A stretch of 64,000 nt of DNA from Thermoplasmata archaeon (GCA_021787125.1 JAJYMI010000076.1:264-64263); one strand, 5' to 3'. Counted from the first letter of the stretch, positions 2,507-19,869 are shown. Numbers and translations: made by a program. Notes: a model not told the origin generated them from the letters alone.

Positions 2507-2779
2507 ATGGGGAAGATATACTCCTTGGAAAAGCAGTCTGGAATACTCAGGCTACTAGTGTTCTTGATGGAACATGGGGAGTATTTGCTATCGGATATCT
2601 GGGATGAGGCTGGAATAAGTATCAATCAAGGGTACAAGGCACTAGAGAAAGCAAGGGATCTCGGCTTGATCAGCACCAAAACGGATAATTCCAAGTATCC
2701 TCCAAGGAATTTGATTTCCCTTACACAGAAGGGGAAGAAAATAGCAACTAAACTGAAGGATATAGAAGAGACCCTATAG
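2507..2779 (+). CDS. Small winged-helix (wHTH) transcription regulator, 90 aa
   Basis: Size and pattern are typical of archaeal wHTH proteins: LRLLVFLMEHGEYLLSDIWDEAGISINQGYKALEKARDLGLIS...LISLTQKGKKIA. Assignment is by motif recognition only. Confidence 0.65.
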   Translation: MGKIYSLEKQSGILRLLVFLMEHGEYLLSDIWDEAGISINQGYKALEKARDLGLISTKTDNSKYPPRNLISLTQKGKKIATKLKDIEETL

Positions 2780-2896: not shown

Positions 2897-3121
2897 TCAG
2901 ATTAGTTCAAGTTCTTTCATTAGATCCTTGGCTCTTTCGCTTGCAATCCTGGTGATGATGAAGCTACACTTCTCATTCATCAAAGTGATTAGTTCTTCCC
3001 GTGTTTTTGTTTCCTCAACAGCTCTTCTAAACACCGCACAGTCAAGGTCAAACTGATCCTTTCTCCCGGCCACATATTCTTTCTTTATCTTGTTCCAAAA
3101 ATCTGAATCGTTTATATCCAA
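2897..3121 (-). CDS. Small conserved protein, 74 aa (paralog of ORF 10790-11047)
   Basis: C-terminus FIITRIASERAKDLMKELELI matches FVITKISNERVDELMEELELI at 13/21 residues. Similarity extends over ~62 aa. Confidence 0.55.
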   Translation of the reverse strand: MDINDSDFWNKIKKEYVAGRKDQFDLDCAVFRRAVEETKTREELITLMNEKCSFIITRIASERAKDLMKELELI

Positions 3122-3212: not shown

Positions 3213-3333
3213 GACGAAATAAAAGTTAAGTATCCTCTGATTATATAATTGAGGGAATATGATCTCTTTAACTGACAAAGGCGAGAAAGTTGCAAAGCTG
3301 TTGAAGGAGATTGAAGAAGTGCTGGAGGGGTGA
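3213..3333 (+). pseudogene. Decayed copy of the wHTH regulator gene (C-terminal remnant with stops and a frameshift)
   Basis: DEIKVKYPLII*, then a frame shift to MISLTDKGEKVAKLLKEIEEVLEG* (3259-3333). Compare SKYPPRNLISLTQKGKKIATKLKDIEETL of ORF 2507-2779. Confidence 0.5.
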
Positions 3334-3427
3334 GAAATTGACAAGAATAGATTCTAATGCAGACCTCGTAAATCTGCAACAACCAGATTATGAAATAGGA
3401 CTGACACTCTTGAATTTGAAGCAGAGG

Positions 3428-6400
3428 ATGAGTCCGCAACAGAATGGAAAACAACTAGTAGATTCAGTCAAGATAGAGAGGAGAGATAAAGAAGAAATCA
3501 ACCCAACTATCAGTAAGAACTCGCTGACTGGAGTGAACAAGACAATAGCGGACCTACTTCCGAATATATCAATGTTTATGGAGTTTCAGGTTGATTCGTG
3601 GAATTTCATCAATCAGTTATATTCTAACAAGACAAAAGAAGCTTTGATTGTATCAGCACCAACGGGATTTGGGAAGACAGAGGCAGTTATACCAACCATA
3701 ATCAATCACATTTCAAATACTGAAGGAATAGCTATATTGATATTTCCGAGAAGGGCATTGCTCCTTGATCAACTCAAGAGACTTGCAGGTTATAATTTTC
3801 CGCAAGGATCTATAAGGATAGGAATGCAAATGGATGGCATAAATGGGTTACTCGAGTGGACTATATACAATGAAAAGCAAAAGAACATTTCAATAAGAAA
3901 TTTCCCTCACATTCCTCCTCAAATAGACCCTAAGAAACATTTCAATTATCATTTTGAAACAGAGCTGCTGTCTGTTGATTATCTTTCTGGGGATAAGGAT
4001 AGGGTAAAACTTAGCTTCATCAAGTGTGGCTGCGGAGGTGATTTGTACCAAGATGTCTTTTTCCGTTCGGTTGGTGTAACGCTAGGTCTTGGAAGGCGGG
4101 ATCAACACAGTTCATTTATAGGAAGTTCAACCAACACTACGTGGACGTGCGAGAACTGCTCTCGGAACTACTCGGTTTCGATATCTAGAAATGAGCACAT
4201 AGTTCTGAAACCAAACCTGATATTCACAACCATAGACTCTTTGCCTTCATTGTTTTCTGATCCAGAGATAAGAGATGACCTAATTGGCAAGCCAATAACC
4301 GTAGTCTTGGACGAGATTCATGTGTATTATGGTTCATACGGAGCTCACGCCGCTTCGATATTGTCCCAGCTTGCTTCAAGGGTTGGAGGTAACATCACTA
4401 GCGTTGGTTTAAGTGCAACAATTGATAAACCAAGAGAATTTGGCAAGAAAGTATTTGGTAAGGACACTGTGGTGATCTCACCTAAGCAAGGTGATAAGAG
4501 TATTATCAAAGACGCTGAGACCTATTATTTTATTAAGAGCGCAAGTGACACCAAAAAATCGGGGGAATTTTACTCGTTGAAATCTCAAGCAATGATACAG
4601 TTTGGCTTGCTATCTGCATCGTCTGTCCTGAATCAAAACAAAACCATGCTAGCATTTATGGATTCAATTGACGCTGTGAGTCTTCTCCAACGTCAAACAG
4701 AGGACGCATACAACTATCCGTCTAAAAGGCTCCACCACTTCAGGCTTGATGGACTGACCTCTGATAATATGGTTTACAATCAACAGACTTGTTCAGGATT
4801 TAATCCCGGTACCTGTGAAGTCAATTGCACTATCCACGAAGCAGGTGAATGCTGGAACATACTACGTAACTCATCCTCGGTCACAACTCCTCAGAGAATA
4901 TCAATAAACTCTGTATGGGCTTCAGCACTTCCAGATAGGACTACGCTTGGTAATTCACACATCATATATTCCACTTCAGAGCTCGAACTCGGAATAGACC
5001 TACCGCATGTTGAGCAATTAGTCCAATATGGAGCTCCGTACACAATTTTCAATTATTTACAAAGGAAGGGTAGAGCAGGTAGAACCCCCGGGAGTAAGCC
5101 GAGTTTCTATTTTATTCTTGGAGATAAGTCGAACGATTTTGTATACTTTTCTCACGGAAGAAACATACTTAATAGGATGTACATGCTGCCTCTAAACACT
5201 GAAAATAGAGTAGTTAAGGATATACACAGGATGCTTAATGAGACATACGACGAGAGTATAAATGAATACCAAAGAATTACTACCAATCAGACTGTTCAAC
5301 TAACCTATGTCAGAAAATTCAGGTCCTCTTGGTATGCCGTCCTATCAAAAATTTCTACAGACTTCTCCAATTTCCTATCTAACAACCTGGGAATAAATCT
5401 TCAAACAATTGTTACAATAGCAGATTACCCCGGAATGAAAGACTTTAAGCGGGACAAAGGAGATCTGATAGATCAGTTTCTTGTAACTAAACAAAACGAA
5501 TTAAATGATCTCTTGATGGATGGTCAATCACCGCTTCGCTATTTGGAGGAAGAAAAGCAAAAACTTCTTGACAAAATCGAAGTTTCGACTATAAATAATA
5601 ATGATAAAGTGCTGTTGAAACAGAGAATAGAAACGGTGATTGGAGATGTGTTAGTAGACATGGGTACACCTACAGCACAAAGAAATCCGACAGCCGAAAG
5701 ACAACATCAAGTTGACCTTCTTCAGGTTCTATATAATATTGGTATCCAGTACTTAGGGTCTGAATTAGGGGAGGCCTCCTCAGAGTTCCATGCTGCTGTT
5801 CATAGAGTAGCCACGGTAAATCAAACGCTGGTCAACGGACAGCAAAGAATCAGGGAGTTGTTCTTCTTGGTTCAAACAATGAATGAACTTGGAGATGCGG
5901 TAAACAGATCACTATCATCCGAAATAATAAAATATGTATATCGTGCCCAGCACTTCTATGATCTTTCATCACAAAGTTCAGCTTTTACTATTACATCTCC
6001 GCTTCCGTCTCCACTTCCGCCTACAAATTTGTTCTCCACTTCCTCTAGAGAAGTTTTGGTGCTCTCGGGAAGAGGTGCTGATACAGGGGAAGCGAGAGAC
6101 ATCAAAGAAGTAATTTACAAATACTTCCCGTTTCGTCTAAATGAAGTGGGGGCCCCTGGCTCGAAGAAACTTGTACAACCAAGAGTGGAAAGAAATAATG
6201 GAAGTTATCAGTTCGAGCCACGTGAATATTTGGATGGGTTATTATTCCGAGCGCAACGGCAACAGAGACAGGTACTACTGCCTATGAGTGCTGTAACCGA
6301 GTCGATACAAGATGACGGAGTTAACGGAATAGTTTCATTTTGTGACCAGTGTTTAGTTCTTCAGGATTATAGCAGAGATTACTGTAGGGAGTGCAGACAG

Positions 6401-7354
6401 CCTCTTTCTAAAGTCAGAGCTTATGCATCTCCAATTGTCGAAGTAAAGGTTAACGATATGGGAGGCATTTCTGCGCCTATCAGATCAATGAGTTATGGGA
6501 AGTCCACGGATGTGATGATTACCTTGAACGGAGTTGAGCTTAATTTGAGGTATCAACGTTTTGATCAAACGAACGGAGAATACATGCCTTCCAGCAGAGG
6601 AGAGACTTTTCAGATAAACGCAACTATTCCCTACGGATACATGGTGAACACTCACTCTATTGAAATCCAAATTCCTCAAATGAAGATTGCTGATTTGATT
6701 TCAAACTTTAGAAATTTGAATCAAAACAGACAAATTACTACGAGTGACGTGCTTCACACACTCGCTCATCTCTGGGTAAAGACTGTTTCATTAAGTACGG
6801 GAATAACTGATGAATATTTTGCCTATAGAGTTAATGATAACGATCAATCCCCCTCTATCGTAGTCAGTGAATTTCAAGAGGGTGGAGCGGGTTATCTTGA
6901 AATCTTCGCAGATTTAATCAGTAAATCTACAAACAGCGTGCTAGACAACATGCACTCTCTAACAAATTGCGCAGAACACAATAGGATTTCTACTGATGTG
7001 GTGACCCAGCAGATAGCTAACGAAATGCAAAATTTGGATTTTAGATCCACATTTAGGTTATCCAAGAAAGACCAACTTGTTCGGGAAATAAGTGGACGCC
7101 TTAATCTTCAAGATGGGGAAGTAATAGACCATTTTCCAACTTGTTACGACGGCTGTCCGTACTGTATAGGTCTCTCAGGGTGCGAGCAAGGCGTAGAAGA
7201 GCAATTCGACAATTTAAGCCTACAGGTAGCACGAGACTACGTAAATTCTCTGGTGATTACAACTAATGACCAAAATAAGGCAGCGTCATTGGTTGCGAAC
7301 GGAGGAATATTAGTCAGATCAGGGGGAGGTCAATTTGGAATCTTCCTTCTATAA
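3428..7354 (+). CDS. Superfamily-2 DExH helicase of the COG1205 type with C-terminal DUF1998/MrfA-type zinc module
   Basis: Helicase motifs: I APTGFGKTE (3653-3682), PRRALLLDQ, II VVLDEIHVYYG (DEIH at 4310-4321), SAT, and VI QRKGRAGR (5060-5083). C-terminal module: HTLAHLW...EGGAGY...CYDGCPYC (7142). The ORF track starts at TTG 3311, but 3311-3333 overlaps the wHTH remnant, so ATG 3428 (preceded by GCAGAGG) is preferred. Confidence 0.85.
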   Translation: MSPQQNGKQLVDSVKIERRDKEEINPTISKNSLTGVNKTIADLLPNISMFMEFQVDSWNFINQLYSNKTKEALIVSAPTGFGKTEAVIPTIINHISNTEGIAILIFPRRALLLDQLKRLAGYNFPQGSIRIGMQMDGINGLLEWTIYNEKQKNISIRNFPHIPPQIDPKKHFNYHFETELLSVDYLSGDKDRVKLSFIKCGCGGDLYQDVFFRSVGVTLGLGRRDQHSSFIGSSTNTTWTCENCSRNYSVSISRNEHIVLKPNLIFTTIDSLPSLFSDPEIRDDLIGKPITVVLDEIHVYYGSYGAHAASILSQLASRVGGNITSVGLSATIDKPREFGKKVFGKDTVVISPKQGDKSIIKDAETYYFIKSASDTKKSGEFYSLKSQAMIQFGLLSASSVLNQNKTMLAFMDSIDAVSLLQRQTEDAYNYPSKRLHHFRLDGLTSDNMVYNQQTCSGFNPGTCEVNCTIHEAGECWNILRNSSSVTTPQRISINSVWASALPDRTTLGNSHIIYSTSELELGIDLPHVEQLVQYGAPYTIFNYLQRKGRAGRTPGSKPSFYFILGDKSNDFVYFSHGRNILNRMYMLPLNTENRVVKDIHRMLNETYDESINEYQRITTNQTVQLTYVRKFRSSWYAVLSKISTDFSNFLSNNLGINLQTIVTIADYPGMKDFKRDKGDLIDQFLVTKQNELNDLLMDGQSPLRYLEEEKQKLLDKIEVSTINNNDKVLLKQRIETVIGDVLVDMGTPTAQRNPTAERQHQVDLLQVLYNIGIQYLGSELGEASSEFHAAVHRVATVNQTLVNGQQRIRELFFLVQTMNELGDAVNRSLSSEIIKYVYRAQHFYDLSSQSSAFTITSPLPSPLPPTNLFSTSSREVLVLSGRGADTGEARDIKEVIYKYFPFRLNEVGAPGSKKLVQPRVERNNGSYQFEPREYLDGLLFRAQRQQRQVLLPMSAVTESIQDDGVNGIVSFCDQCLVLQDYSRDYCRECRQPLSKVRAYASPIVEVKVNDMGGISAPIRSMSYGKSTDVMITLNGVELNLRYQRFDQTNGEYMPSSRGETFQINATIPYGYMVNTHSIEIQIPQMKIADLISNFRNLNQNRQITTSDVLHTLAHLWVKTVSLSTGITDEYFAYRVNDNDQSPSIVVSEFQEGGAGYLEIFADLISKSTNSVLDNMHSLTNCAEHNRISTDVVTQQIANEMQNLDFRSTFRLSKKDQLVREISGRLNLQDGEVIDHFPTCYDGCPYCIGLSGCEQGVEEQFDNLSLQVARDYVNSLVITTNDQNKAASLVANGGILVRSGGGQFGIFLL

Positions 7355-7781
7355 GGGAGATTTGTCGCAGATCATTCCTACAATATATTCGCTGTCAACT
7401 CCAGGAACTTCAGTTTATGTGCTTTCTCCTTGGCTGAACATTCACGTAGAGGTCATCATACCATGGAAGAAGACAGATAATGAGAAACCTTTCATTGAAT
7501 TTGTGGTTTCCGAAAGACGAAGAGGCGTGGACAGCGTCTTCTTCGTTAGTACTATGGCTAGAGATGATAAAGAGACTCAGAGATCCATAACAGAATTGAC
7601 TGGCTTAGAGTTTAGAATCAAAGTGATTGAAAATCTTCACTCTAAAGCTGTGATTGGAAATTTGTTGATGTACAGAGGAAGTGCAAACATAACATATAAT
7701 GGGCTCTATAACAATATTGAATCCGTGACAATGACCGTTGTCAACAATCAAGAAGAGGCACTTAGGGGGCTCTTAGCATAA
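7335..7781 (+). CDS. Single-HKD phospholipase-D-family nuclease (Nuc/DrmC-like), 148 aa
   Basis: LHSKAVIGNLLMYRGSANITYNG is an HxK(x)4N(x)5GSxN motif, with H at 7638. TTG start overlaps the helicase stop by 20 nt. Confidence 0.75.
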   Translation: MESSFYKGDLSQIIPTIYSLSTPGTSVYVLSPWLNIHVEVIIPWKKTDNEKPFIEFVVSERRRGVDSVFFVSTMARDDKETQRSITELTGLEFRIKVIENLHSKAVIGNLLMYRGSANITYNGLYNNIESVTMTVVNNQEEALRGLLA

Positions 7782-7798: not shown

Positions 7799-8983
7799 AT
7801 GTCGCAAGAGTTGATACATCTCATCGATTCTCCATTCCGGTCAAGGAAGTCAAAATATTTTACAGTATTTGGTTCTGAGCGTACCTTTGATCTATTAATA
7901 TCCAACAAGTTCTACCCGACAATTCTACCTGCCAGTGGTAAGCTCATTTCTTTAACTGTAACCACTGAAAACCTTGAGAACAAGTTCGATTATATCCAAA
8001 AGAGTTACAATAAAATCATAACTGCTAACCTTTCACAAACCAACGAAATTGACAATTTTGTAACCTACGGAAAGTTTTCTACTTATGAAGTTTCTGACAG
8101 GGTATACAGTGTTTACCTTGATTCTCTTAATCTAAATATCTTATCCACCCCTCCATTGGTGATTGAAAAAGAGATTGAAGGCAAGAAGAATAATGAGATT
8201 ATAGGGAAGACTCGACATTTTCAATGGGCTTCTTACTCACGCTACGGAAAGGACTCAATAGACGCAACTTTCAACATAATAATAGTAAACTTTCCACGGA
8301 CTAATCTGCGATATAGTGGTCATACAATAATCAACTTTAGAGGACAGGAACTACTTGTATCATCGATTTTTGCAAAAATGCTTGTTTCGGGGCGAGATGG
8401 AAATTTCTCATTCGTTTTCGTAAAGCTCGTGTTTGATCCTTCTCTGTTTAATGAAATTCTACGAAATGATTTAGTTGCTTGTGTTCTCCAAGTCTACACG
8501 CTATACAACATAAAAGATGGAAATAAGGATATTCAGCCTATCAACTATGTAACTGCAGTTGTCCCGTTCTTCGGGTCATATGAAGAACTGATTCCTTTTT
8601 TCTGCAACCAATTCTCTGAGGAGGGGTATAGCAGGAAGTGCATAGTTGATAAGAAAATAATGGAGAAACTACGTTTTCAGATACTGGAAGGTTCAAGGAC
8701 AGAGGATAAAGAAGTACACCTTGAAAGCAATGTTTACTCACTCCGCGAACACCAGGAATGCTTCGAATATTCAATACTCAGACCTGAATCAATTCTTAGA
8801 TTTATTGAAGGGGCCGTGTCTAGTGACTTAGGTCGGTCCATTTTGGAGAACACAGTTTCTGACGGAGATATAAAACAAGAAGCGCAGCACTTGGTTGAGC
8901 AACTTAAGAATAGCTCTTTCATTAATGGCACACTTATAAATCCCGGTTTGAAACGCTCTATACTTGAAGCATTTAAAGTTTAG
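7799..8983 (+). CDS. Hypothetical 394-aa protein, no recognisable motif
   Basis: ORF track. Lies 17 nt after the PLD gene and 44 nt before the TGT-like gene, with the same AT-rich composition. Confidence 0.6.
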   Translation: MSQELIHLIDSPFRSRKSKYFTVFGSERTFDLLISNKFYPTILPASGKLISLTVTTENLENKFDYIQKSYNKIITANLSQTNEIDNFVTYGKFSTYEVSDRVYSVYLDSLNLNILSTPPLVIEKEIEGKKNNEIIGKTRHFQWASYSRYGKDSIDATFNIIIVNFPRTNLRYSGHTIINFRGQELLVSSIFAKMLVSGRDGNFSFVFVKLVFDPSLFNEILRNDLVACVLQVYTLYNIKDGNKDIQPINYVTAVVPFFGSYEELIPFFCNQFSEEGYSRKCIVDKKIMEKLRFQILEGSRTEDKEVHLESNVYSLREHQECFEYSILRPESILRFIEGAVSSDLGRSILENTVSDGDIKQEAQHLVEQLKNSSFINGTLINPGLKRSILEAFKV

Positions 8984-9027: not shown

Positions 9028-10170
9028 GTGAAGATGATCCCAATTTTTGTCGCTGATAGGCCATTTTCCTTAAAAATACTGGAGGGACTGAAGTGTCAAG
9101 GATATCCATTCGGCATTTTGTCCCACGTATTTACCTCGAAAAATTTTAAGGAGAAATTTAAGGATTTTACTCTGGCAACGATAAAGGTCGGGGATTCAGG
9201 AATTTACCAAGGACAAGATGTTAGCTATGAATACCTGTTCAGCCAATACGTAAAAATGGGAGTCAGCCATGGTATCATAAAGGACTACTACAGAGATCCC
9301 GAATTGACTTTAAGTAGCGCAAAAGAAGCTATTAAAATACATAACACCGGTGACTATAACAAGAGTTTCGAACTTGTTGGAGTCGCCCAAGGAAGGTCGG
9401 TTGAGGAATATGTCGAGAGTTACAGGAAACAGAAAAAAATGGGCTACGAAATGGTTGCAATTGGCGGGCTTCTAGACAAAGTACAGAGGCACGTAAGACT
9501 AGTTAAGGTGAAAAGAGAAGAATTATTAGAGGAAACCTTAAGAACAATAAGAGAGCATTATCCACAGGATAGACTGTTTCCACTAGGAACTTTTAACAGA
9601 GCAAGAATAAAACTCTTCAAGGAAGTTGGAGTCTGGGGATCAGATTATAAAGGCTGGATTTTCAAATATAATCTGGAAGAAAGTCACATTCAGAACAACA
9701 GGACAGAACAGACTCGAAATTACATTGAGACAAAGGTATTTCCCATACTGGGTAAAGAAAGACTGCTCATACTTTCTTGCTCCGATTCCAAGAGAATTGG
9801 AATCGGCAAGGCAATTGACATTTATGATGGGCCGGCCTACAAAATTGTAAGAAAGTATCTCAGGCATAACAATGGTTTAGACGTGCGAATAATCTCAGCG
9901 AAGTACGGCATAATCAGCAAGGATACCCTAATAGAAGATTACAACGAAAGACTCACTCCAGAGAAGGCATCTGTATACAGGACTAGGTATTCGCAAGAAA
10001 TCAGAACGCTGAGTTCAGCGTATGGTGAGGTATTAATATATGGGGGCAGCACTTATCAATCTGTATTCAAAAATGTGGAAGTAAAAAGGACAAACGGAAG
10101 AATTGGAGAACAGTTATCGCAGCTCAAGAAATGGCTTTATTCTCAAGATCAACCGAGTTCATCTTCTTAG
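9028..10170 (+). CDS. TGT-fold (tRNA-guanine transglycosylase / DpdA-like) domain fused to a DUF6884-like C-terminal domain
   Basis: TGT-like motifs: VGDSGIYQG (DSG at 9193-9201, compare TGT DSGGFQ), MVAIGGLL (9457-9471, compare AIGGL), LFPLGTFN...VGVWGSDYKGW. C-terminal region from 9763: LLILSCSDSKR...IDIYDGPAYK...RIISAKYGII. With only two Cys, the canonical TGT zinc site is absent. ATG 9034 is an alternative start. Confidence 0.65.
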   Translation: MKMIPIFVADRPFSLKILEGLKCQGYPFGILSHVFTSKNFKEKFKDFTLATIKVGDSGIYQGQDVSYEYLFSQYVKMGVSHGIIKDYYRDPELTLSSAKEAIKIHNTGDYNKSFELVGVAQGRSVEEYVESYRKQKKMGYEMVAIGGLLDKVQRHVRLVKVKREELLEETLRTIREHYPQDRLFPLGTFNRARIKLFKEVGVWGSDYKGWIFKYNLEESHIQNNRTEQTRNYIETKVFPILGKERLLILSCSDSKRIGIGKAIDIYDGPAYKIVRKYLRHNNGLDVRIISAKYGIISKDTLIEDYNERLTPEKASVYRTRYSQEIRTLSSAYGEVLIYGGSTYQSVFKNVEVKRTNGRIGEQLSQLKKWLYSQDQPSSSS

Positions 10171-10789: not shown

Positions 10790-11047
10790 CTAAATTAATT
10801 CGAGTTCTTCCATCAACTCATCCACCCTCTCGTTAGATATCTTCGTAATCACAAAACTTATATTCTCCTTCAGGAACTTGAAACATTGGTCTATGGTACT
10901 GGAGACCTCACTACCCTTCATTATGATTTTGAAGTCGATGTCCCACTGTCCCTTTCTTCCGTTGATAAATTCCTTGCCAAATCGATTCATTCTCCCTTCC
11001 CTCCATCCTAATCTCATCCAGAACTTCCTCCAGGTTTCTTTGACCAA
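10790..11047 (-). CDS. Small conserved protein (paralog of ORF 2897-3121); N-terminus uncertain
   Basis: GKEFINGRKGQWDIDF...FVITKISNERVDELMEELELI aligns with the 74-aa paralog. Upstream, 11047-11290 shows frame-disrupted coding on the minus strand. Confidence 0.5.
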   Translation of the reverse strand: MVKETWRKFWMRLGWREGRMNRFGKEFINGRKGQWDIDFKIIMKGSEVSSTIDQCFKFLKENISFVITKISNERVDELMEELELI

Positions 11048-11325
11048 GCTCCTTCAAACCGTCTTTCCATACCAAGGTAGTCTGTCGATGTGTAAAATTG
11101 CAACTCACGAAGATCATTCCCCTAAGACTTCGTGGCCATCCGGCTGTGACTCAATCAGGTCCAATTCTTTGAACAAGAATGCTATCAATTCTTCCTTTGT
11201 AGTCGTCCCCTTGTTTCCATCCTTCCCTGGTCATATGCGTCCAGAGTTTCCAATTCATCTTTGCTTATCGTTAGCATCGTGGTTAGAATTTTTGGTTACT
11301 TATCTAAGGATTTTACTGGCATTTG

Positions 11326-11354
11326 ATAAATGAAAAAAGTGAAGAAATGAATTC
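11326..11354. repeat. Direct repeat, left copy (ATAAATGAAAAAAGTGAAGAAATGAATTC)
   Basis: Core 11331-11354 matches 19038-19061 at 23/24 nt. TACTGGC is also shared upstream (11314-11320 and 19008-19014). Confidence 0.55.
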
Positions 11355-11386
11355 GAAATTTAACTCAAAGTAAATCTCTTAAATCT

Positions 11387-11944
11387 CTACCTAATCGAAG
11401 TGTGCCTTCTATTATAGAGCTCAAGTTTTGATTTCAAAATCTCTGATACGTCAGTCTCATTTTCTGCAGGGTACAACTTGTCATCTGGAATATTGGCGTA
11501 CCTAATCCTTGCATCTAGCCTCTTGCCAGCAAGATCAGAACTCCAGCCTTTCACACGGTAGCATATTACAAGTCTCTTTAGGGACCACGCAAAAGCCAGT
11601 TCAGACAGTGTTCCTGCTCCTCCACCCATCGCTACCACTGCATTTCCGTTTGCCACTATTAAATTTCTGAATTCATCCAGCCCAGACGCTATTACTATGT
11701 CTGCAACTCCTTCTGCGACCTTAGGATCAAATCCAGGAAGGATCGCAATGATGTCACCATCCGTGTAATTCGAGGATTTCCTCCCTCCCACCGAAAGGGC
11801 CCTAGGGAGAGACCCAATTCCTCCCGAGAGTATTCTGTACCCGTCGTCAATAAGCCTTCTCCCCAGCGAAACCGCAAGATTCCATTTTTCCGATCCCTCT
11901 GGGATGTTCCTGTCCCCTATAACGGAAATGATTGGCTTACTCAT
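11387..11944 (-). CDS. LOG / TIGR00725-type SLOG Rossmann-fold protein
   Basis: ISVIGDRN...LSGGIGSLPRA...AILPG...RNLIVANGNAVVAMGGGAGTLSELAFAW (GGGxGTxxE motif). Overlaps the end of the megaprotein gene by 8 nt. Confidence 0.75.
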   Translation of the reverse strand: MSKPIISVIGDRNIPEGSEKWNLAVSLGRRLIDDGYRILSGGIGSLPRALSVGGRKSSNYTDGDIIAILPGFDPKVAEGVADIVIASGLDEFRNLIVANGNAVVAMGGGAGTLSELAFAWSLKRLVICYRVKGWSSDLAGKRLDARIRYANIPDDKLYPAENETDVSEILKSKLELYNRRHTSIR

Positions 11945-14900
11945 TTTGATAATACCCCCTTTTCTCTAAAATCCCTCCTATAATTCTTTCATTTTCTTCT
12001 CTGCTTCTCTTCTTTTTGTCTGCAGATGGGTCGTAGAAATATATCAGTTGCTTTATCCACACAGGAGATTTCGCCATCTCCACTATCGGTATCATGAAGG
12101 CCCAGTCCTCAGCCTGCGGAATCCACTTGCCATCCAACTTAAAGTCTTCCTCGTCTATCTCATCAAACAGATATTTTCTGAATGTTCTCAGATGCTGCCA
12201 GACGTTTCCTCCCCTGTTCTTCCTCGGGTTGACAAAATTGACCTGGTAATAGGAATGCTTATCCGCCCTCAGCATTGAACCAACGGTCACATCCGCTCCC
12301 TCTCTGTATTTGGTTACCACAGTATCCACAACATCCCTTCCTATGAGTGCATCATCCGCATCGACCATAGCAATGATAGAATTGGGATTCTTGCATATTT
12401 TTCTGACCGCGAAATTTACGTTTTCCATGGGGGTCAATGCTTCAAGATTCCTCATGATAGTCATTCTCTCCCTGACTCCAGGGAAGACAAGATTCTCCAC
12501 GTACTCCAGCATGCCGTTCCTGGAGGATGCATCGATAAACACCATTCCGAACGATTGATTTCGCTGAGAGAACAGTGAATCAAAACATCTCCTCACTTTG
12601 GAGATGGGTACATCCCGCCCCCTGATTATGACGACCACCTCTTCGTTTCGTTCCCCTGACCAGTCCGCGACAGATCCGACAAGATCCACTCTGCCCTTCT
12701 GTGGTGGAAACACATTTCCTATCTCCAACGATTTCACGATGTTGAACCAGTCATTGAATTCGGACTTCCTTTCGTTTGGAATGTGAATGAAGAAGGTCGA
12801 TCCAATCGGAGCCCTGAGAGAGTGGAGGCCATCTTTCAAGATTGCCCTGTCAATGCTTCTGTGCCACGGGAAAACAAGTCTCCCCTCCTCGTCCACCTCA
12901 TTTTCCAGCGGCAGGAATTTCTCCAACCTATCGAGGGAAATCAGTGAATTCCTGACTTCGATCCTCCAATCCACTCTTTCATAGTAGCTTTCCCTTCTTT
13001 CTCCCGAACCCGCGACTGGAAATGAAACGGAGATAGCCCTCTCATCGTTTTCCAGAATGTCGATCATCTCTTGTAGGAAGTTGGATCGAGGTCCATCCCT
13101 CCATATAATTGAGTCTCCATCGCACTGCAGCACGTACTTCGTCCTGCAGTTCTGAAATCCATAGAGTGTGGTCAGGATGGGCTGACCGTTAGAGCTCCTC
13201 ACTTTGTCGCTCTCCAATCCGAACCATCGTCTGCTTATTCCCTTCCGAATGGTGGGATCATCGGGCAGGACAAGGTATCTATCCAGGGTCCCTTCCGCGA
13301 CAAGAGAATCAAGCGTCTGAATGAGATTCTCAAAATCCCCCTCATCGTATTGCCTGTTGAATCCTTCTTCCTCCATGTCGGTGACCGCTACCCTTTCCCT
13401 GAATGCTCTGGGAGAATCCAGTTGGTTCACCAGATGCCGTATCTGCATGTTGGCAGTTTTCCATTCCATTGCTGAAATTTTTATCAGGAGGGTCGCATTC
13501 TGGTTTACAACTTGCATCACTGGGCTCAAAACGAAGAGCATCAGGTCGCTCCCGGGTGAAAGATTGTTAAAATCCAAGGATGGCAATTCGTGAACTTCGT
13601 CAATGCTGAATCCTGCTTCCGTGAAGAGCTTTGAGTACCAGTCAAAGGGTCTGTGATAGTCCTCCCTTCTCTTGAAGGTGCTCTTCACGATCTTCTCGTA
13701 TCTGGTCAACTTGGAGTACTCTGGAAGTGGAGAAGCCACTAACGAGTGCTCGCTCTCCTCTTGCTCATTGCTGAAGGGATTACAGACTCCGATCAGCGCC
13801 CTACCTCCTTTTTTTACCAATCGTCTTATATTGGTCATTATCTTGTTTGCTTCAGCATCCTTTACCTCACACAGTACCTGGTTAGCCAGGACAAGGTCAA
13901 ACTTCCTTCTTCCCGCGGAGTTATCGTTTATCTGTGATTCTGACATGCTCTTGATTCTATTTTCTCCAGTATGCCTCTTGTTGAATTTCTCATAATCTAA
14001 GTCGTAAACCCAGACCCGTGCTTGCCCAGAAATCAGATCGGCCAGCCAACCGTTGCCAGTTCCGTAATCCAAGACCGTTTTCGGACCGAGGCCCCTGATA
14101 ATTTTTTCAATAAGTCCGTACAACCGATCGTGTAACGACCCTGCGTCCAACGATGACCTGAAATACTCAAACCCGTACAACTCCGGCATGTCGTATTCCT
14201 TCAGAGTCCTATGCGCTAGTTCCTTGAAATCGCTCCTGAAGTGCCACCTATAAGTTAGAAATGCTCTCCTGCACATGTTGTCGTAGTAACCGTCGGAAAA
14301 CCCAACGATGCTGGTTCCCAAGTCAACATACATCACCCGCGAGCCGCTGACGATGAGGTTATCAGGGGAAATGTTGGTGAGACAGATACCTGCTGCCCTG
14401 CACTCCTGCAGAAGTTCCATTATAGAACTGAGATATCCGCCATGGTACATTTCGCCCTCCACAAACGAGGAGACCAAGATTACTCTGCCTTCAGAGACGA
14501 CCACCTTTTCTATTCCAGCCAGATGCTTCAGTTGCAGATTGGAATTCGCAATCTTCCGAAGAAGTTCGAGCCTCCCGTGCTCAAAGTGCTGGGCTCCATG
14601 ATGAAAATACTTGTAGGATCTTGTACCGTCAGAAAGAACGATGCCTTCGCTTCCTTCTCCCAGCAGCCTGAGACGCCGTCGACCAAATTTCTTTTCGATG
14701 ACGTTCTTCGCATCTTCGATTTCTTCAGTGCTTGCGTGAACGGGCAATTTCTCACGATAGGAGACACAGTAGGATTCCAAGTTTTCTAGAAATTCTGTCA
14801 ATTCTTTTCTCGCATTCGCGAGTGATTCCATTTGTCCCGTCAAGTTGGGCGGTGAGAATTCATTCTCGATTTTTTGGAGGGTCTCTTCGACGGCACCGGA

Positions 14901-17087
14901 GTAGCTTCTTACGAGGTCACCTGCTGTACTCGGTGTTGTCTTCATTTCTTCCAGCGCCTTCCTGATCGAACCTACGAGTCCCCTTATCCTCCAGGAATTC
15001 ATCAGAAGCATGTTGAACCGAAACTTCACTCTGGCTTCAAAATCTGAAACCAGCTGGTCAATTTGCTCACTGGAAGAACTAAGGAGATCGTGGGCGGATG
15101 CACCGTCTCCCAGCCTCTCTCTCGTGCTCGTAAGGAATTGTTTCAGTGTTCGTACCAGCGAAGCACCGTAGATGTCGTCTATGGTGGTTCGGAGCGCAAG
15201 CTTAGAATCAACACCGTAACGCCTATCCTGGCGCAGAGACAGCGGAATCGACACCACCTTCTTCCTGCGAGTGAGAACATTTCTGCCCCCAACCTCCTGA
15301 TTCAGCAGGGCCCATACTGTATCTCCTCTTCTGAAGGTGGTTCTGTCGGTGACGGGAGCAATGTTCGGAAATGTCCTGAGACATTCAGGGTCAAATACCA
15401 GGGTGTTTCCACCTCTAACTGGAATGCCGCCTTCAGTCGTTTCTTGGTCTGATGACGGTACAACGGGTCTGAACAGGTTCACCCCCGAATTGATTAGAGG
15501 GAAGTTCTCAAGCATGTGTCTTAGCGTAGAGGCGCTTGTATCCTCGGTATCCGTCACGTACCAACTTGGAGCTTCCAGGTGGCCATAGTGGCGCAAGGTG
15601 AGATCGTAATAGTAGTCGGTGTACCTTTCTGAGATGACTCCGTTCTCTGCCTCTTTCTTCTGAGACTTGGGCGTACTGCTGGACGGATTTGTTAGGGCTT
15701 GAAGATTGAATAGAAAGTCCAGCAGCTGCGTTCGAACCATGCTCGCTGCGGGAAGGGGAGGATCCCCAGAAATCTTGCCAATTGCGATGGAGCAACCTTC
15801 TGACCTCAGCGACGAAAGGTAATCCATGAATTCTCCTTCGTCAAGTCTGGTGTTGTTCAGACCCAGATCGTCCAACCGGACGTCATCGTCAAGTATCCAT
15901 ATGACCGGATTCGTCAAATCAAAGGATTCCAGGTAGAGGTAGTGGTGCAGGACCGTTCTTCCAAAGGGAATTCCTTTGCGTCTGAAGCCCGCTTCATAGT
16001 ATTTCCCAAAATTCCCGTTTGCTGCATCTCTTTCGATCAATTCTTTTCCAACGATGCGGACCACGAATTTCTGAGAGACCGTATGAGCTATGGTATCCAG
16101 CCTCTGCGAATCGCCAGAATTGTCGCAGATCACAATTATTGCCTTACCTTTCGGAACTCTGAGGAACTGCCCAATATCTTTCAGGAGAAGTTCTGTGGAA
16201 TCGAGATTGGAGCACGTAAACCCGATCAGGAGATCAGAAGACGAATGGGCAGTCGATGAAGCCTTGCGCTGGTGCTGTTTCATCAACGGTCGTTCCTTGG
16301 TTTCCTTTACCAAGTCATTTTCAGAAAAGCCAAAGAGGTCTAGAGCTCTCTTCTTGAACTGAGCCCGCTCCTCAGCGTTCATCCTGGATGAATATTTTCT
16401 GAAGAACTCAATGAGTCCTTGCCTCTTTCGTTCCGATCCATAGCTTGAAATGCGGTCCTTTCCAGTGGAGTAGTGATGGACAAGGTGTTCATCGACGTAG
16501 CTGACCTTAAGGCCTTTGAGGTCAAAGAGTCTTATACAGACGTCCCTATCGGTTGTGCTTTCAAGATTCTCGTCAAAGGCTCCCGCCTCCAATATCGAAG
16601 ACAGCCTGACGAACAGATTTGAGCCTTGAACGTGAGGATTGGTAGAAAGGAATGAGGATGAGGAAAGATTGTGCGGAATTGCTTGTTTTCTTCCTATATC
16701 GTCTTCTATTTCATGCCTCACCATGCCTGAGACAACCAGATCGGAGTCGTTCAGGGTCGCAGAGTCAAAACATTTCTCAATATAACTCCCCTCCCAAGCA
16801 TCGTCATCGTCAAGAAAAGCCACATACGTTTCGTCTGGATCTACGTTTATAGAAACGAGATAGAAGAGCGCGGTGTTCAGTGCTCCAGACATGTTTGCAG
16901 TTCTTTGATTGACAAGAGTGACAAGTTCGGAATTGATATCGGTACTCAGTGAAGAAGTGTCTTCATTGTTTTCCCCTACCAAGATTACCTTATCTGGTCT
17001 CAGGGATTGAATGAAAATGGATTTCAGGGCTCTTGGAAGTGAGTCTGGTCTTCCCTTGGTTGGTGTGATTGCAAAGATTTCTGTCAT
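11937..17087 (-). CDS. 1716-aa multidomain enzyme: GT2 glycosyltransferase, second GT-A-like domain, protein-kinase-like domain, class I SAM methyltransferase, GT-A-like domain, C-terminal GT2
   Basis: - **N-terminal GT2:** FAITPTKGRPDSL...FLDDDDAW.
- **Second GT-A-like domain:** IVICDNSGD...WILDDDVRLDD.
- **Kinase-like domain:** LLGEGSEGIV...SYKYF...LTNISPDNLIV...YVDLGTS.
- **Methyltransferase:** VLDYGTGNGWLA...FDLVLANQVL.
- **GT-A-like domain:** VLQCDGDSII.
- **C-terminal GT2:** VVVIIRGRD...FIDASSRNG...MVDADDALIG. Confidence 0.8.
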   Translation of the reverse strand: MTEIFAITPTKGRPDSLPRALKSIFIQSLRPDKVILVGENNEDTSSLSTDINSELVTLVNQRTANMSGALNTALFYLVSINVDPDETYVAFLDDDDAWEGSYIEKCFDSATLNDSDLVVSGMVRHEIEDDIGRKQAIPHNLSSSSFLSTNPHVQGSNLFVRLSSILEAGAFDENLESTTDRDVCIRLFDLKGLKVSYVDEHLVHHYSTGKDRISSYGSERKRQGLIEFFRKYSSRMNAEERAQFKKRALDLFGFSENDLVKETKERPLMKQHQRKASSTAHSSSDLLIGFTCSNLDSTELLLKDIGQFLRVPKGKAIIVICDNSGDSQRLDTIAHTVSQKFVVRIVGKELIERDAANGNFGKYYEAGFRRKGIPFGRTVLHHYLYLESFDLTNPVIWILDDDVRLDDLGLNNTRLDEGEFMDYLSSLRSEGCSIAIGKISGDPPLPAASMVRTQLLDFLFNLQALTNPSSSTPKSQKKEAENGVISERYTDYYYDLTLRHYGHLEAPSWYVTDTEDTSASTLRHMLENFPLINSGVNLFRPVVPSSDQETTEGGIPVRGGNTLVFDPECLRTFPNIAPVTDRTTFRRGDTVWALLNQEVGGRNVLTRRKKVVSIPLSLRQDRRYGVDSKLALRTTIDDIYGASLVRTLKQFLTSTRERLGDGASAHDLLSSSSEQIDQLVSDFEARVKFRFNMLLMNSWRIRGLVGSIRKALEEMKTTPSTAGDLVRSYSGAVEETLQKIENEFSPPNLTGQMESLANARKELTEFLENLESYCVSYREKLPVHASTEEIEDAKNVIEKKFGRRRLRLLGEGSEGIVLSDGTRSYKYFHHGAQHFEHGRLELLRKIANSNLQLKHLAGIEKVVVSEGRVILVSSFVEGEMYHGGYLSSIMELLQECRAAGICLTNISPDNLIVSGSRVMYVDLGTSIVGFSDGYYDNMCRRAFLTYRWHFRSDFKELAHRTLKEYDMPELYGFEYFRSSLDAGSLHDRLYGLIEKIIRGLGPKTVLDYGTGNGWLADLISGQARVWVYDLDYEKFNKRHTGENRIKSMSESQINDNSAGRRKFDLVLANQVLCEVKDAEANKIMTNIRRLVKKGGRALIGVCNPFSNEQEESEHSLVASPLPEYSKLTRYEKIVKSTFKRREDYHRPFDWYSKLFTEAGFSIDEVHELPSLDFNNLSPGSDLMLFVLSPVMQVVNQNATLLIKISAMEWKTANMQIRHLVNQLDSPRAFRERVAVTDMEEEGFNRQYDEGDFENLIQTLDSLVAEGTLDRYLVLPDDPTIRKGISRRWFGLESDKVRSSNGQPILTTLYGFQNCRTKYVLQCDGDSIIWRDGPRSNFLQEMIDILENDERAISVSFPVAGSGERRESYYERVDWRIEVRNSLISLDRLEKFLPLENEVDEEGRLVFPWHRSIDRAILKDGLHSLRAPIGSTFFIHIPNERKSEFNDWFNIVKSLEIGNVFPPQKGRVDLVGSVADWSGERNEEVVVIIRGRDVPISKVRRCFDSLFSQRNQSFGMVFIDASSRNGMLEYVENLVFPGVRERMTIMRNLEALTPMENVNFAVRKICKNPNSIIAMVDADDALIGRDVVDTVVTKYREGADVTVGSMLRADKHSYYQVNFVNPRKNRGGNVWQHLRTFRKYLFDEIDEEDFKLDGKWIPQAEDWAFMIPIVEMAKSPVWIKQLIYFYDPSADKKKRSREENERIIGGILEKRGYYQNE

Positions 17088-17206
17088 CAGAACACCACGG
17101 TCATAATTGTTGCATAATTGAATTCCTCATTGTCGCCCCAACTGGCGCCCAAGCTTTCCTGGGATTCTCCACAATGAGTATTTGTCAGCCTCTTCTTCAG
17201 GCACAT
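17087..17206 (-). CDS. Small ORF, 39 aa (MCLKKRLTNTHCGESQESLGASWGDNEEFNYATIMTVVF)
   Basis: Own codon-by-codon translation. It fills the epimerase-megaprotein gap. Its TGA shares the A of the megaprotein ATG (17087). GAAGGGA lies upstream of ATG 17206. Confidence 0.3.
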   Translation of the reverse strand: MCLKKRLTNTHCGESQESLGASWGDNEEFNYATIMTVVF

Positions 17207-17225
17207 GCGAATCCCTTCAAGATGG

Positions 17226-18167
17226 CTACTCCATTGGGTTGGGCAGAGGAGAAATTTGCTGACTCGAAATCGCGTCTGAAATTACCCTGCTCACAATTTC
17301 CTCAACGCTGATTCTCGGAGACCAACCCAGCACCGAAACGATTTTCCTGTGATCGGAATACTGGTCAAAGGCCTGAGTGTTTGCTTCCCTGAACTCTATG
17401 GAGCCCTTCCCCACCTTCTTTACAACCAGATTGGCCAGATCGATGACGGAGATCGGTTTGTTGCCCAAGACAAAGACATCGTAAGTAGCGCTCATCGTAC
17501 GGAGATGGTTCAATCCCAGTGAAAATGCAGTCGCGACATCTATTGGATGTATGAACTCTCTTATGTGCTTTCCGTCTCCCAGAATTACAATGGGCTTGTC
17601 ATTGAGTGCAGCGCTCACGAATTCCCTCAGGACGTTCATCTCTTTCTGACCCTCTCCACTAACTAGCGGAGGCCGAAACATTACCGTTTTAATTCCGTAG
17701 ATATCGGAATAGAGCTTTGCTATTTCTTCGACGAACGCCTTAGAAGACCCGTACGGATTGTTTGGATGAAAGGGGGTTTCCTCGTTTATTGGGCAGGGGG
17801 CATGGCCATATGGAGAGAAGCTGCCCATACCCAGAACCCTGGCGATGTCAAGCCGTCTGCAGGCTTCATAAACATTGAGCGCCGCATTTACGTTTACCCT
17901 CAAGTAATCGTAGGTTTGCTTAACGCTTTCAGCGCCGCCCCCTTTTCCGTTCGACCCCGTGAGGGCAGCGAGATGCACAAGGACGTCTGGTTCGGAAAGT
18001 TCTAGGACACGTTTGAGATCTGGATAACGAGTTGCATCAGTCACGTAGTGATTCCGACCCTTACTGCCTACGATGTCCAGAGTTGCGGTGTCGTGCCCAT
18101 CGAGATTTAGCTGTCTGTGGATGTACCTGCCAATGAATCCCTCTCCCCCCGTGACTAGGACTTTCAC
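17226..18167 (-). CDS. NAD-dependent sugar-nucleotide epimerase/dehydratase (SDR family)
   Basis: KVLVTGGEGFIGRYI (GxxGxxG) and YGSSKAFVE (YxxxK). The GTG start forms a GTGA overlap with the NYN gene stop. Confidence 0.85.
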   Translation of the reverse strand: MKVLVTGGEGFIGRYIHRQLNLDGHDTATLDIVGSKGRNHYVTDATRYPDLKRVLELSEPDVLVHLAALTGSNGKGGGAESVKQTYDYLRVNVNAALNVYEACRRLDIARVLGMGSFSPYGHAPCPINEETPFHPNNPYGSSKAFVEEIAKLYSDIYGIKTVMFRPPLVSGEGQKEMNVLREFVSAALNDKPIVILGDGKHIREFIHPIDVATAFSLGLNHLRTMSATYDVFVLGNKPISVIDLANLVVKKVGKGSIEFREANTQAFDQYSDHRKIVSVLGWSPRISVEEIVSRVISDAISSQQISPLPNPME

Positions 18168-18766
18168 TTATTGTCACTCCCTCTTTTTAGACCCAGATCC
18201 TCAAGCCTTGGATAGAACAAGATATGCATGGATTGTCCAATCGTGACGAACAGGAATTTGAGGCAGATTGCAGGCAAAGATGATCTCGCAAGTTTCAAGT
18301 CATTCGTCAGCAAGATAGGTCTGGTACTAGAGGGCATGAGTCGACGTTTGATTTCTCGAATAAACATGTCTGCGGAGGTTCCGGCAGGTACCTGGTTTAT
18401 TTTCCCCTGGGAGATTAGATTCTCGTAGGCGATATTGTCGTCTATTGTATGCCTGAGGGTCGCATCAGCTATGCAAATATAGGGAACATTGATCCCGTCG
18501 AATTCCAACAGAACTGTTATGATTCTAGAGATCTGTGGTTTTCCGGGGCCTGCCCAGGCAACATTACTTGCATCTATCACCACAAAGCTATCTATTCGGG
18601 GACCGCTTGCAATATCATCACTGCCAGAACTTTGCTTAGAGATTTCTGTTTCACCATTCCTTCTTAGAGGCAGGCTCATATCATCTTCGATTCCTCTCCC
18701 GTTTAGAGAAAAATCGGAATCCGCAGATTCAGCCATAGAAAACACTCTCCTCTTTTTTGAGTACAA
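18164..18766 (-). CDS. NYN (Zc3h12a-like) ribonuclease-domain protein
   Basis: FVVIDASNVAWAG...ICIADATLRHTIDD...PAGTSADMFI resembles the VIDGSNVA...D pattern of NYN/PIN-like RNases. Confidence 0.6.
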   Translation of the reverse strand: MYSKKRRVFSMAESADSDFSLNGRGIEDDMSLPLRRNGETEISKQSSGSDDIASGPRIDSFVVIDASNVAWAGPGKPQISRIITVLLEFDGINVPYICIADATLRHTIDDNIAYENLISQGKINQVPAGTSADMFIREIKRRLMPSSTRPILLTNDLKLARSSLPAICLKFLFVTIGQSMHILFYPRLEDLGLKRGSDNK

Positions 18767-19031
18767 GCATGAAGCTTAGCGAGCTTGCATCAGCAAGAGA
18801 CCGAGAACGAATTCTCAGCTGAACCCATCCATACTGGAGTAGGTTCATAATGGTGTAAATTTAATTTTGTATTTAAGCTTTGCAATCTCCAACTTTGAAA
18901 GTCACTATCGGGACCGTGCATGTCACTCTAACGACCGGACTAAATCTATCGCTTTCCTTCTGTTTTCATATCAATCACATTTCAAATTTTCACGTGACTA
19001 TTTCAATACTGGCCAAGGCAGTGAGAAATGA

Positions 19032-19061
19032 ATAAAATGAAAAAAGTGAAAAAATGAATTC
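19032..19061. repeat. Direct repeat, right copy (ATAAAATGAAAAAAGTGAAAAAATGAATTC)
   Basis: See 11326-11354. This copy also carries a local duplication of GTGARAAATGAAT (19021-19033 and 19046-19059). Confidence 0.55.
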
Positions 19062-19070
19062 TAACTGGTT

Positions 19071-19553
19071 CTAGGTACTTATTCCTCTGTGATAGCTTAT
19101 CAATTTTCCTTCTCCATCAAATATGAATGTCTTAGATGTGTAGAACCAGGGAAATAAGTGACCATGAGTTATTTTCACCGTGAACTTCACTGCGTTTATT
19201 TTGTCAACCATATGCTCTTTCCCAATGAATCCCCTCACGTTGACTTGTCCATTGTGGCCAATGAAAGGTACCGTGTTACTATCCGAGCCACTTGTATCGG
19301 TTCCGTCGATTCTCCATTTGATGTCCCTAGCGGTTCCAGGTCCTGCATTCATGATCTCTAAGTCCAAGTATTCACTCCCTCCTGAGAAGAACTTCGGCCC
19401 AAGCGTGTTGTCAGGATAAGAATATGCAAGATCCAAAGCCTTCGTTACAAGAACTGGAAAGACTGCCGATAAATTCGCGATTAGCACATTCATCAGGGTA
19501 AGAAACAGTCCAAGAACCGTTAAGGCTAACCCAATATACTCTATCCAATACAT
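19071..19553 (-). CDS. Hypothetical membrane-anchored protein, 160 aa
   Basis: ORF track. N-terminal hydrophobic helices: IEYIGLALTVLGLFLTLMNVLIANLSAVFPVLV. Confidence 0.5.
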   Translation of the reverse strand: MYWIEYIGLALTVLGLFLTLMNVLIANLSAVFPVLVTKALDLAYSYPDNTLGPKFFSGGSEYLDLEIMNAGPGTARDIKWRIDGTDTSGSDSNTVPFIGHNGQVNVRGFIGKEHMVDKINAVKFTVKITHGHLFPWFYTSKTFIFDGEGKLISYHRGIST

Positions 19554-19869
19554 ATTATGTTAAGGTTCTTCAAAGATTATTATTTTGCACTCATCCAAAT
19601 CTCTGGCAAAAATCACACTTCCAATTGATACCTTTGTCAGTACTACCCTTTGTCGTAGGCATGTAATTACCAGTCGTCATATTGGGACTCCGGAAATCAT
19701 CTAGCATCCCTTTGTCGTGCATGAACAAGGTTATCGGGCAAGAAGGCAATAAAGTAATTGGGGCATCCTCAATTTAGAATGTGACGGGGTAAATTATGGA
19801 ATGAACCAGAACTTAACATTCAGGGTATATTTTCCGATAGCTCTTTTATAGGAATGTTACTTATTGGTG

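Follow-up and report, generated by a model that had tools for sequence, protein, structure and literature searches.

Direct repeats around a glycosyltransferase/SLOG island in a Thermoplasmata archaeon probably stem from a conserved 27-nt element heading a recurring two-gene module

Two nearly identical direct repeats in the genome of an uncultured Thermoplasmata archaeon enclose 7.7 kb of DNA with four genes, and raise the question of how this DNA came to lie between them. The locus is part of a stretch of 64,000 nucleotides (nt) (GCA_021787125.1, JAJYMI010000076.1:264-64263), which was analysed as a whole and is referred to below as the window. A reading made from the sequence alone had proposed that an insertion duplicated its target, an att-like or terminator region of the neighbouring open reading frame (ORF) at 19071-19553, here called ORF19071. 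We consider it probable instead that the repeats are two copies of a cis element which heads a small two-gene module, and that the island between them arrived via recombination of such heads and not by an insertion that made the duplication. The features on which the argument depends are the following.

11328..11354, minus strand: left copy of the 27-nt head motif, GAATTCATTTCTTCACTTTTTTCATTT; begins 32 nt past the stop codon of the SLOG gene of the island and ends 50 nt before the ATG of gene 1
19035..19061, minus strand: right copy of the 27-nt head motif, GAATTCATTTTTTCACTTTTTTCATTT on the minus strand; begins 9 nt past the stop codon of ORF19071
18946..19034, minus strand: truncated module-head remnant after the right copy; ATG at 18969, stop after 7 codons (18946)
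11114..11277, minus strand: gene 1, 'LDAYDQGR' family, a pseudogene with a frameshift and an internal deletion
10790..11047, minus strand: gene-2-like small gene; probable start ATG 10990, MNRFGKEFINGRKGQWDIDF...; ortholog of an 81-aa gene of the related locus L010
19071..19553, minus strand: ORF19071, encoding a 160-aa uncharacterised predicted membrane protein
11355..18945, minus strand: inserted island; absent in the related loci L010, L015 and L020, and marked by its Pfam content and a GC shift

The pair of 24-mers at 11331-11354 and 19038-19061, with a mismatch at 1 of 24 positions, was borne out by a check of the sequence and by 100 dinucleotide shuffles, in which the 24-mer had no match. 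The similarity reaches further, to 28 of 30 nt (11328-11357 against 19035-19064), and this is the top direct repeat both of the region from 9 to 22 kb and of the entire window; the 27-nt core copies around the island are identical at 26 of 27 positions. A third copy of the 24-mer was not found in the 64-kb window with up to 3 mismatches. Beyond the 30 nt the pairwise alignment of the two copies collapses, and the sequences that follow the motif in the two copies resemble each other at the level of shuffled sequence (z 0.8-1.4). The sequence-only reading had placed the left copy 33 nt past the LOG (SLOG) stop codon and the right copy 10 nt past that of ORF19071, each one nt too far. It had also named an ATAAA and a TACTGGC common to both copies. 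We ruled both out as repeat parts because of their unequal offsets in the two copies: ATAAA is shifted by one base, and TACTGGC lies outside the repeat, at distances of 10 and 24 nt from the two 24-mers, and has five occurrences on the plus strand of the window.

The two-copy arrangement is not an assembly artefact. An identical ORF19071 protein was encoded on 19 contigs. All eight places that were retrieved (ENA, NCBI, JGI and Logan assemblies) run on into the island genes, and the five of these that were aligned to the window showed 99.97-100% identity, which argues against misassembly.

Related genomes carry the locus without the island. Other homologs of ORF19071, which itself had no match in Pfam, PADLOC or NCBIfam, formed two clusters only, P0002 (75% identity) and P0003 (65%). 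The contigs with these homologs (L010-L021) have a single motif copy after or overlapping the stop codon, and no island. The empty site that had been predicted, an ORF19071 homolog followed by one repeat and then by the ortholog of 10790-11047, is present in L010 and also in L020 and L015. The order in L010 is ORF19071 homolog, motif, TATA-like box, a 50-aa gene and an 81-aa gene (9327-9593), the last of which matched 10790-11047 with 64% identity over 80 aa in tblastn; farther on follows a DUF6884 protein with 70% identity to the one encoded at 9028-10170 of the window. The left junction of the window aligns with the loci of the relatives from the motif onward and shows no homology to them upstream of it. 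In comparison with its nearest known relatives the window has an extra 7.6-7.7 kb exactly here. This bore out the claim that the operon, seen against related genomes, is an insertion: in L010, L015 and L020 the ORF19071 homolog and the small-gene module have no island between them.

The repeat itself turned out to have a much wider distribution. Module loci were gathered via homologs of the 64-aa 'LDAYDQGR' protein and then their contigs. In every locus a motif of the form (A)ATTCATTT[T/C]TTCA(C/A/T)TTT..TTCATTT lies upstream of gene 1, and the consensus of the 27-mer is (G)AATTCATTT[T/C]TTCACTTTTTTCATTT. The module consists of the motif, about 25 nt, a TATA-like box (e.g. AAGTTTCAAATATC), another 25 nt or so, gene 1 ('LDAYDQGR', approximately 64 aa) and an overlapping gene 2 ('EFWNG', approximately 70 aa); neither protein had a match in Pfam, PADLOC or NCBIfam. 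The motif was present in 13 of 13 distinct heads compared. Mean pairwise identity among these was 0.89 within the motif, 0.36 in the 30 nt upstream and 0.44 in the 70 nt downstream, and the distance from the motif end to the ATG of gene 1 was 50-65 nt irrespective of the upstream neighbour. At least eight unrelated upstream contexts were found, with neighbours including ORF19071 homologs, the SLOG gene (window), an AAA ATPase (L038), a 223-aa gene (L040) and DUF8036 (L043); in three contexts the upstream gene is divergent (234, 613 and 54 aa in L033-37, L039 and L032, respectively). The core ATTCATTT[T/C]TTCACTTTTTTCATT is unchanged in seven other loci. The right copy of the window is identical to the motif of L009/L032 over all 27 nt, and the motifs of L033-37 and L038 differ from it only in one or two bases at the 5' edge. 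L033 and L038 encode an identical gene-1 protein and share 304 nt at 98% DNA identity inside different surroundings, and this identity starts exactly at the 5' edge of the motif. Two copies per locus were found in the window only, one in every other locus.

From its conservation in all contexts and its near-constant distance to the start codon of the module, we interpret the 27-mer as a conserved 5' element of a recurring two-gene module and not as a feature of ORF19071. This 27-nt element and the two-gene module are previously undescribed in this uncultured Thermoplasmata lineage. The exact 24-mer had one match among genome contigs, in L009, from another Thermoplasmata metagenome-assembled genome, and none in metagenome contigs; the motif was not found in viral contigs, which also contained no relatives of gene 1, ORF19071 or SLOG save a trivial 20-aa match. 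A degenerate version of the 27-mer had 5 matches in metagenome contigs, which were rejected as chance since they lie on AT-rich contigs without flanking-gene homology. The sequence-only reading had set a common genome-wide terminator or intergenic motif against itself; the recurrence seen here comes near to that, yet it is specific to the module and not generic across genomes. The L009 match was also considered as an empty site and ruled out: there the motif precedes a homolog of the frameshifted ORF left of the left copy, the DNA before it is unrelated to ORF19071, and the locus is a module head in another context. In this contig (L009/L032, JBMFVV010000005.1) the DNA upstream of the motif looks like variable cargo abutting the same motif; the segment at 5434-6996 of L032 encodes three SHOCT-domain proteins, a SnoaL-like protein, a nucleotidyltransferase-like protein and a DDE transposase.

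The two copies in the window are heads of two different module lineages, since the right copy is followed by a remnant like L033/L038, and the left copy has the C variant of L039 together with an L039-like gene-1 5' end. The right remnant contains an extra 9-nt T-rich unit, TATTCATTT, a TATA-like TTGAAATAG and then TGTGAT-N4-ATGAAAACAG, a block that matches the start region of L033 and L038. Local alignment of a 130-nt stretch showed it to be collinear with the heads of L033, L038, L015 and L020, with 49-60 nt aligned at about 75% identity (z about 4; a score as high in 2-3 of 1000 shuffles), and its motif-to-ATG spacing of 65 nt equals the usual distance of about 56 nt plus the extra 9-nt unit. 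The left copy reads TTTCTTCAC where the right copy has TTTTTTCAC, and L039 has the same C variant. Its gene 1 matches the 5' end of gene 1 of L039 at 45 of 52 bases, and its promoter is similar to the L043 promoter. This left-hand gene 1 is a mosaic, with a 5' part of the DAYDQG type like L039 and P0140 and a 3' end, 'HEVLGE*', like that of L010/L020. A duplication made by insertion would have started with identical copies and therefore cannot explain the likeness of each copy to a different pre-existing lineage.

Further sequences related to the module were seen in the window. Between gene 1 and the gene-2-like ORF there is a DNA block, GTGAGTTGCAAT...ATCGACA...CTGGTATGGAAAGA.GG.TTGAAGGA, at 11000-11113 (minus strand), which is also found in L010 (9270-9400) and L020 (1073-1231). 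When the sequences are compared in all six frames, amino-acid identity is about 70-75%. The block has coding capacity for a small unannotated protein, '...LVWKDGLKEL.QRNL.E.L.EIRM.G.E', which at its end overlaps the following ATG, as gene 1 does. A 74-aa ORF at 2897-3121 (minus strand) resembles a fusion of gene 1 and gene 2; its C-terminus, '...TREELITLMNEKCSFIITRIASERAKDLMKELELI', is like those of P0142 and 10790-11047, and no 27-mer lies upstream of it. The adjacent ORF at 2507-2779 (plus strand) encodes a 90-aa HTH protein with 46-51% identity to the HTH gene beside the D12 methylase in L010, L033 and L039. Compared with those loci, the HTH gene of the window lies out of place, at the far end of the region.

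The two heads were seen to belong to different lineages, the empty site exists and the motif is conserved across contexts; from these observations we infer the following course of events. The ancestral order would have been ORF19071, motif and module, and the 7.6-kb island would have come between two module heads, within a hypervariable slot of a defence island, by a recombination for which the heads supplied the homology. A linear fragment with the island and a foreign head might have been joined by one crossover inside gene 1, which would have left the mosaic, damaged gene 1, and at its other end by an illegitimate join within the native gene 1, about 8 codons from its start, which would have left the 7-codon stump. 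Alternatively, a circular intermediate that carried a head could have recombined by a crossover within the 27-mer. Both routes fit the data, and in neither would a transposase or integrase have cut and duplicated a target. The locus is a recombination hot spot: L010, L013, L015 and L016 share 98-99% identity across the D12 methylase, ORF19071 and the motif but are unrelated downstream, with divergence points 3 nt past the motif, 14 nt before the ATG and just past the ATG. Three scattered breakpoints suggest exchange between diverged homologous modules rather than a single site-specific crossover point.

Several observations weigh against recombination between heads. The window copies share a single stretch of 27 nt, which is little homology for recombination of the RecA/RadA type, and a donor arrangement, with the island beside a head elsewhere, was not found. 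The homology of the right remnant depends on short alignments with z of about 4, and a profile of the post-motif promoter made from the remaining heads was so weak that it picked up neither window head, not even the syntenic left one. Breakpoints exactly at the motif edges (L033/L038 and L013/L015) would also fit a site-specific recombinase, and related loci repeatedly contain a serine recombinase gene at a distance of 5-8 kb. Sequence alone is the basis for the terminator and promoter roles discussed below, and the AlphaFold model of gene 1, a helical hairpin with a pLDDT of 67, is a generic fold of low confidence and gives no support for autoregulatory DNA binding.

How do other explanations compare? 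Insertion of a mobile element into the terminator region of ORF19071, with duplication of a 24-30 bp target, would account for direct repeats matching at 28 of 30 nt around a compositionally distinct 7.7-kb segment and for the one-copy empty site in relatives. We nevertheless give it very little credence. Inverted repeats pairing the island ends were not found, Pfam identified no transposase or integrase among the four island genes, and we know of no prokaryotic transposon with a target-site duplication nearly as long as 27-30 bp. In addition, the right copy continues into a head remnant, which places the junction away from the motif, the sole differing base is common to the L039 lineage and not a private mutation, and the motif pre-exists in the many unrelated contexts described above. 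Of the insertion proposal, the inserted island, the empty site and the lack of an enclosed recombinase thus stood, whereas target duplication and an att or terminator sequence specific to ORF19071 did not. Still less can be said for two T-rich archaeal terminators that arose independently by convergence or match by chance, a reading to which we assign next to no probability, although T6 runs occur in both copies and each copy closely follows the 3' end of a minus-strand gene. None of the 100 shuffles had any match, and the short core TTTTTTCATTT is no general terminator in the window, where it had 8 hits at one mismatch and both exact ones are inside the repeat copies; the unchanged core in seven other loci and the match at 27 of 27 nt in L009/L032 demonstrate common descent. 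If, on the other hand, the arrangement with two heads and an island were ancestral, deletion between the directly repeated heads would have produced the empty loci of the relatives and would have left exactly one motif, and the locus is demonstrably prone to recombination. This appears quite improbable to us, as all three diverged ORF19071 lineages other than that of the window are without the island, the GC content of the island (0.476, with a GC content at third codon positions, GC3, of about 0.55 in its two large genes) departs from that of the flanks (0.40), and the truncated right head and the mosaic, frameshifted left gene 1 resemble insertion damage rather than an undamaged ancestral condition.

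A further alternative is that the 27-mer is a site-specific recombination site, of att or attI/attC type, at which a recombinase encoded elsewhere integrated a circular island so that each side kept the core. The flanking cores are identical at 26 of 27 positions and related genomes have a single copy, synteny breaks at the 5' edge of the motif (L033 against L038) and no more than 3 nt from its 3' edge (L013 against L015), and the motif is conserved far above its surroundings. Candidates for the enzyme would be the serine recombinase that recurs near the loci, with Resolvase genes in L010, L033-37 and L040, or a weakly tyrosine-recombinase-like ORF of the window. We judge this reading rather unlikely all the same. 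No recombinase is encoded in or beside the island, two copies occur in the window only and one at every other locus, other breakpoints at the strain level lie outside the motif in the promoter or just past the ATG, the motif is without dyad symmetry or hairpin and was not found in viral contigs, and its fixed distance to the TATA-like box and the start codon is that of a promoter element. A bolder form of the idea, in which the 27-mer would be the recombination site of an archaeal cassette-capture platform and the two-gene module would mark the docking point for multi-gene cargo, seems decidedly unlikely to us. Here a recombinase acting in trans (the recurrent serine enzyme, or a divergent tyrosine one encoded at 28142-28837) would insert and exchange cargo such as the glycosyltransferase (GT)/SLOG island, and if true, the site of such an integron-like system would be unstructured and T-rich.

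The ORF at 28142-28837 (plus strand) encodes 231 aa and lies 9 kb from the island. Its hits were all below threshold (PF00589, 16.8 bits; TIGR02249 integron integrase, 18 bits; XerA, 17 bits), TGMR...LRKT...GH...HY motifs were recognised by eye, and a sequence search against the PDB returned noise only. The Resolvase genes of L010 (382-963), L033 (4445-5143) and L040 (1513-2133) lie 5-8 kb upstream of the module, in the company of restriction-modification (RM) genes and an HTH/D12-methylase pair, and this framework as a whole may be a mobile or integrated element.

As to what the motif does where it is kept, its sequence suggests two roles. Read on the coding strand, it is built of T-rich 9-mers in tandem, TTTTTTCAC and TTTTTTCAT, with two T6 runs; the right copy has both runs and the left copy has one. 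Oligo-T runs act as termination signals in archaea, and wherever the upstream gene runs in the same direction (ORF19071, SLOG and the L038 ATPase), the motif lies 0-55 nt past its stop codon. It is therefore a likely terminator of ORF19071 and of the SLOG operon in the window. Its conservation beside divergent upstream genes and its fixed distance to the TATA-like box point to a second role, and most likely the motif would combine an oligo-T terminator or insulator for the upstream gene with a promoter-upstream element for the module. Folding of the two copies as DNA, each strand in turn, gave minimum free energies of -0.6 to -2.5 kcal/mol, no better than shuffles, and thus no hairpin or dyad symmetry in the motif; Rfam had no match in the region from 10 to 20 kb. 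Scans with promoter and terminator models of bacterial type gave nothing usable, these models not being archaeal.

The island itself contains four genes, all on the minus strand.

18164-18736, minus strand: NYN-like gene (PF11977, weak, 19.3 bits, below cutoff)
17226-18167, minus strand: NAD-dependent epimerase gene (Pfam)
11937-17087, minus strand: gene for a 1716-aa protein with GT2 and SAM-methyltransferase domains (Pfam)
11387-11944, minus strand: SLOG/LDcluster4 gene, TIGR00725-like (Pfam)
~18883, minus strand: TATA-like promoter candidate of the island itself, GCAAAGCTTAAATAC

This agrees with the gene content first described, and Pfam confirmed the absence of a recombinase from among the four; the window also contains no tRNA. 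For the NYN-like protein Pfam, PADLOC and NCBIfam returned nothing beyond the sub-cutoff PF11977 match, and a literature search for TIGR00725 returned nothing. GC content is 0.476 in the island and 0.399 and 0.407 in the flanks. The low-GC flanks are rich in genes of defence type (DEAD helicase, DpdA-like/DUF6884, RmuC, an MmeI-type RM enzyme, D12 methylase and AIPR). The window as a whole is a GC mosaic, with about 0.40 from 2 to 33 kb (the island excepted), 0.493 from 33 to 49 kb, 0.381 from 49 to 54 kb and 0.465 from 54 to 64 kb, and the composition of the island is akin to the higher-GC parts and not to the low-GC defence region around it.

The pair formed by the giant GT and the SLOG gene recurs in unrelated contigs without the 27-nt motif, which indicates that the motif is part of the recipient platform and not of the cargo. 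A GT2 and methyltransferase protein of 1716-1975 aa is encoded directly before or overlapping a SLOG/TIGR00725 gene at 11387-17087 of the window and in L022 (890-6680), L023 (914-7416) and L026 (3-2526). The sugar-nucleotide enzyme is separate in the window (epimerase) and fused in L023 (UDP-glucose dehydrogenase). Neighbours of the pair include AbiEii, PDDEXK/Cas4-like and DEAD/MZB helicase genes, and in PADLOC it had no family match save a weak mad2 hit in the methyltransferase region. The pair could be an uncharacterised conflict or glycan-modification cassette.

Two neighbouring regions show further rearrangement or possible defence functions. Beyond ORF19071 lies one more truncated gene.

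19597..19734, minus strand: C-terminal remnant of a D12-class adenine methyltransferase (tblastn from the upstream genes of L039 and L020; gene order in L010 and L014)

In L010, L014 and L039 the D12 gene stands immediately before the ORF19071 homologs. In the window the rest of this gene is missing and RmuC is next, which suggests a second rearrangement on the other side of ORF19071. On the far side of the module, 9028-10170 (plus strand) encodes a 380-aa protein with a DpdA-like N-terminal part (PADLOC DpdA, 6e-12) and DUF6884. It neighbours unannotated ORFs of 394 and 148 aa (7799-8983 and 7335-7781) and a 1347-aa DEAD/Helicase_C protein (3311-7354), and its ortholog in L010 stands beside DUF87 and KwaA/KwaB. 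This neighbourhood may be a Dpd-like DNA-modification or defence module.

Variable regions and defence islands between conserved anchors have been described as hotspots in the E. coli pan-genome (PMC10121019) and in ANME-1 archaea (PMC13385816). The locus of the window is similar in having conserved flanks, with the D12 methyltransferase and ORF19071 on one side and the motif-headed module on the other, and in cargo that differs between near-identical strains and abounds in defence genes (RM systems, KwaAB, PycTM, DUF6884/DpdA-like, Vsr/Dcm). It differs from them in its anchor, a 27-nt cis element and two tiny uncharacterised genes in place of housekeeping genes or tRNAs, and in the cargo of the window, a glycosyltransferase/SLOG cluster without a recognised defence system.

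Likenesses to other known systems are partial as well. Archaeal tyrosine-integrase elements of the SSV and pNOB8 types are bounded by att direct repeats; the island shares with them the direct repeats around a compositionally distinct segment and the single copy at the empty site of relatives, but is without an integrase, a tRNA target and viral or plasmid genes, and its repeat is a pre-existing promoter-proximal element of paralogous modules. In integrons, attI/attC provide a short conserved site between a fixed promoter platform and variable downstream genes, and the motif likewise stands where a fixed, promoter-bearing platform gives way to variable genes. Unlike those sites it has no hairpin-forming imperfect inverted repeat, occurs once per locus and has no adjacent intI, the nearest candidate being the sub-threshold ORF noted above. 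Its runs of six or more T past co-directional stop codons resemble archaeal oligo-dT terminators. Such terminators do not usually keep one particular sequence of 27 nt, whereas the motif is retained beside divergent upstream genes in L032, L033 and L039 and at a fixed distance to the TATA-like box. Homology-facilitated illegitimate recombination and Campbell-type single crossover are known from bacterial genetics. The locus recalls both, with foreign DNA anchored by one short homology and either a mosaic and truncated genes at the junctions or a duplicated homology around the insert; here, however, the shared homology comprises only 27 nt and patchy gene-1 similarity, and a route of this kind in the present lineage is our reconstruction.

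The advance is a modest one, as cargo exchange in a variable hotspot with conserved anchors is of a known kind and the new part is the 27-nt element with its two-gene module as an anchor. The locus illustrates that clean direct repeats together with a verified empty site need not mean target duplication, since the repeat is in this case a pre-existing multi-copy cis element. It also defines a recurrent cassette of a giant glycosyltransferase and a SLOG gene that keeps the company of defence genes. The module marks the edges of strain-variable defence-island slots and could serve as a landmark for finding variable cargo in these archaea, and the locus provides a test bed for the exchange of multi-gene cassettes in archaea without obvious mobile-element genes.

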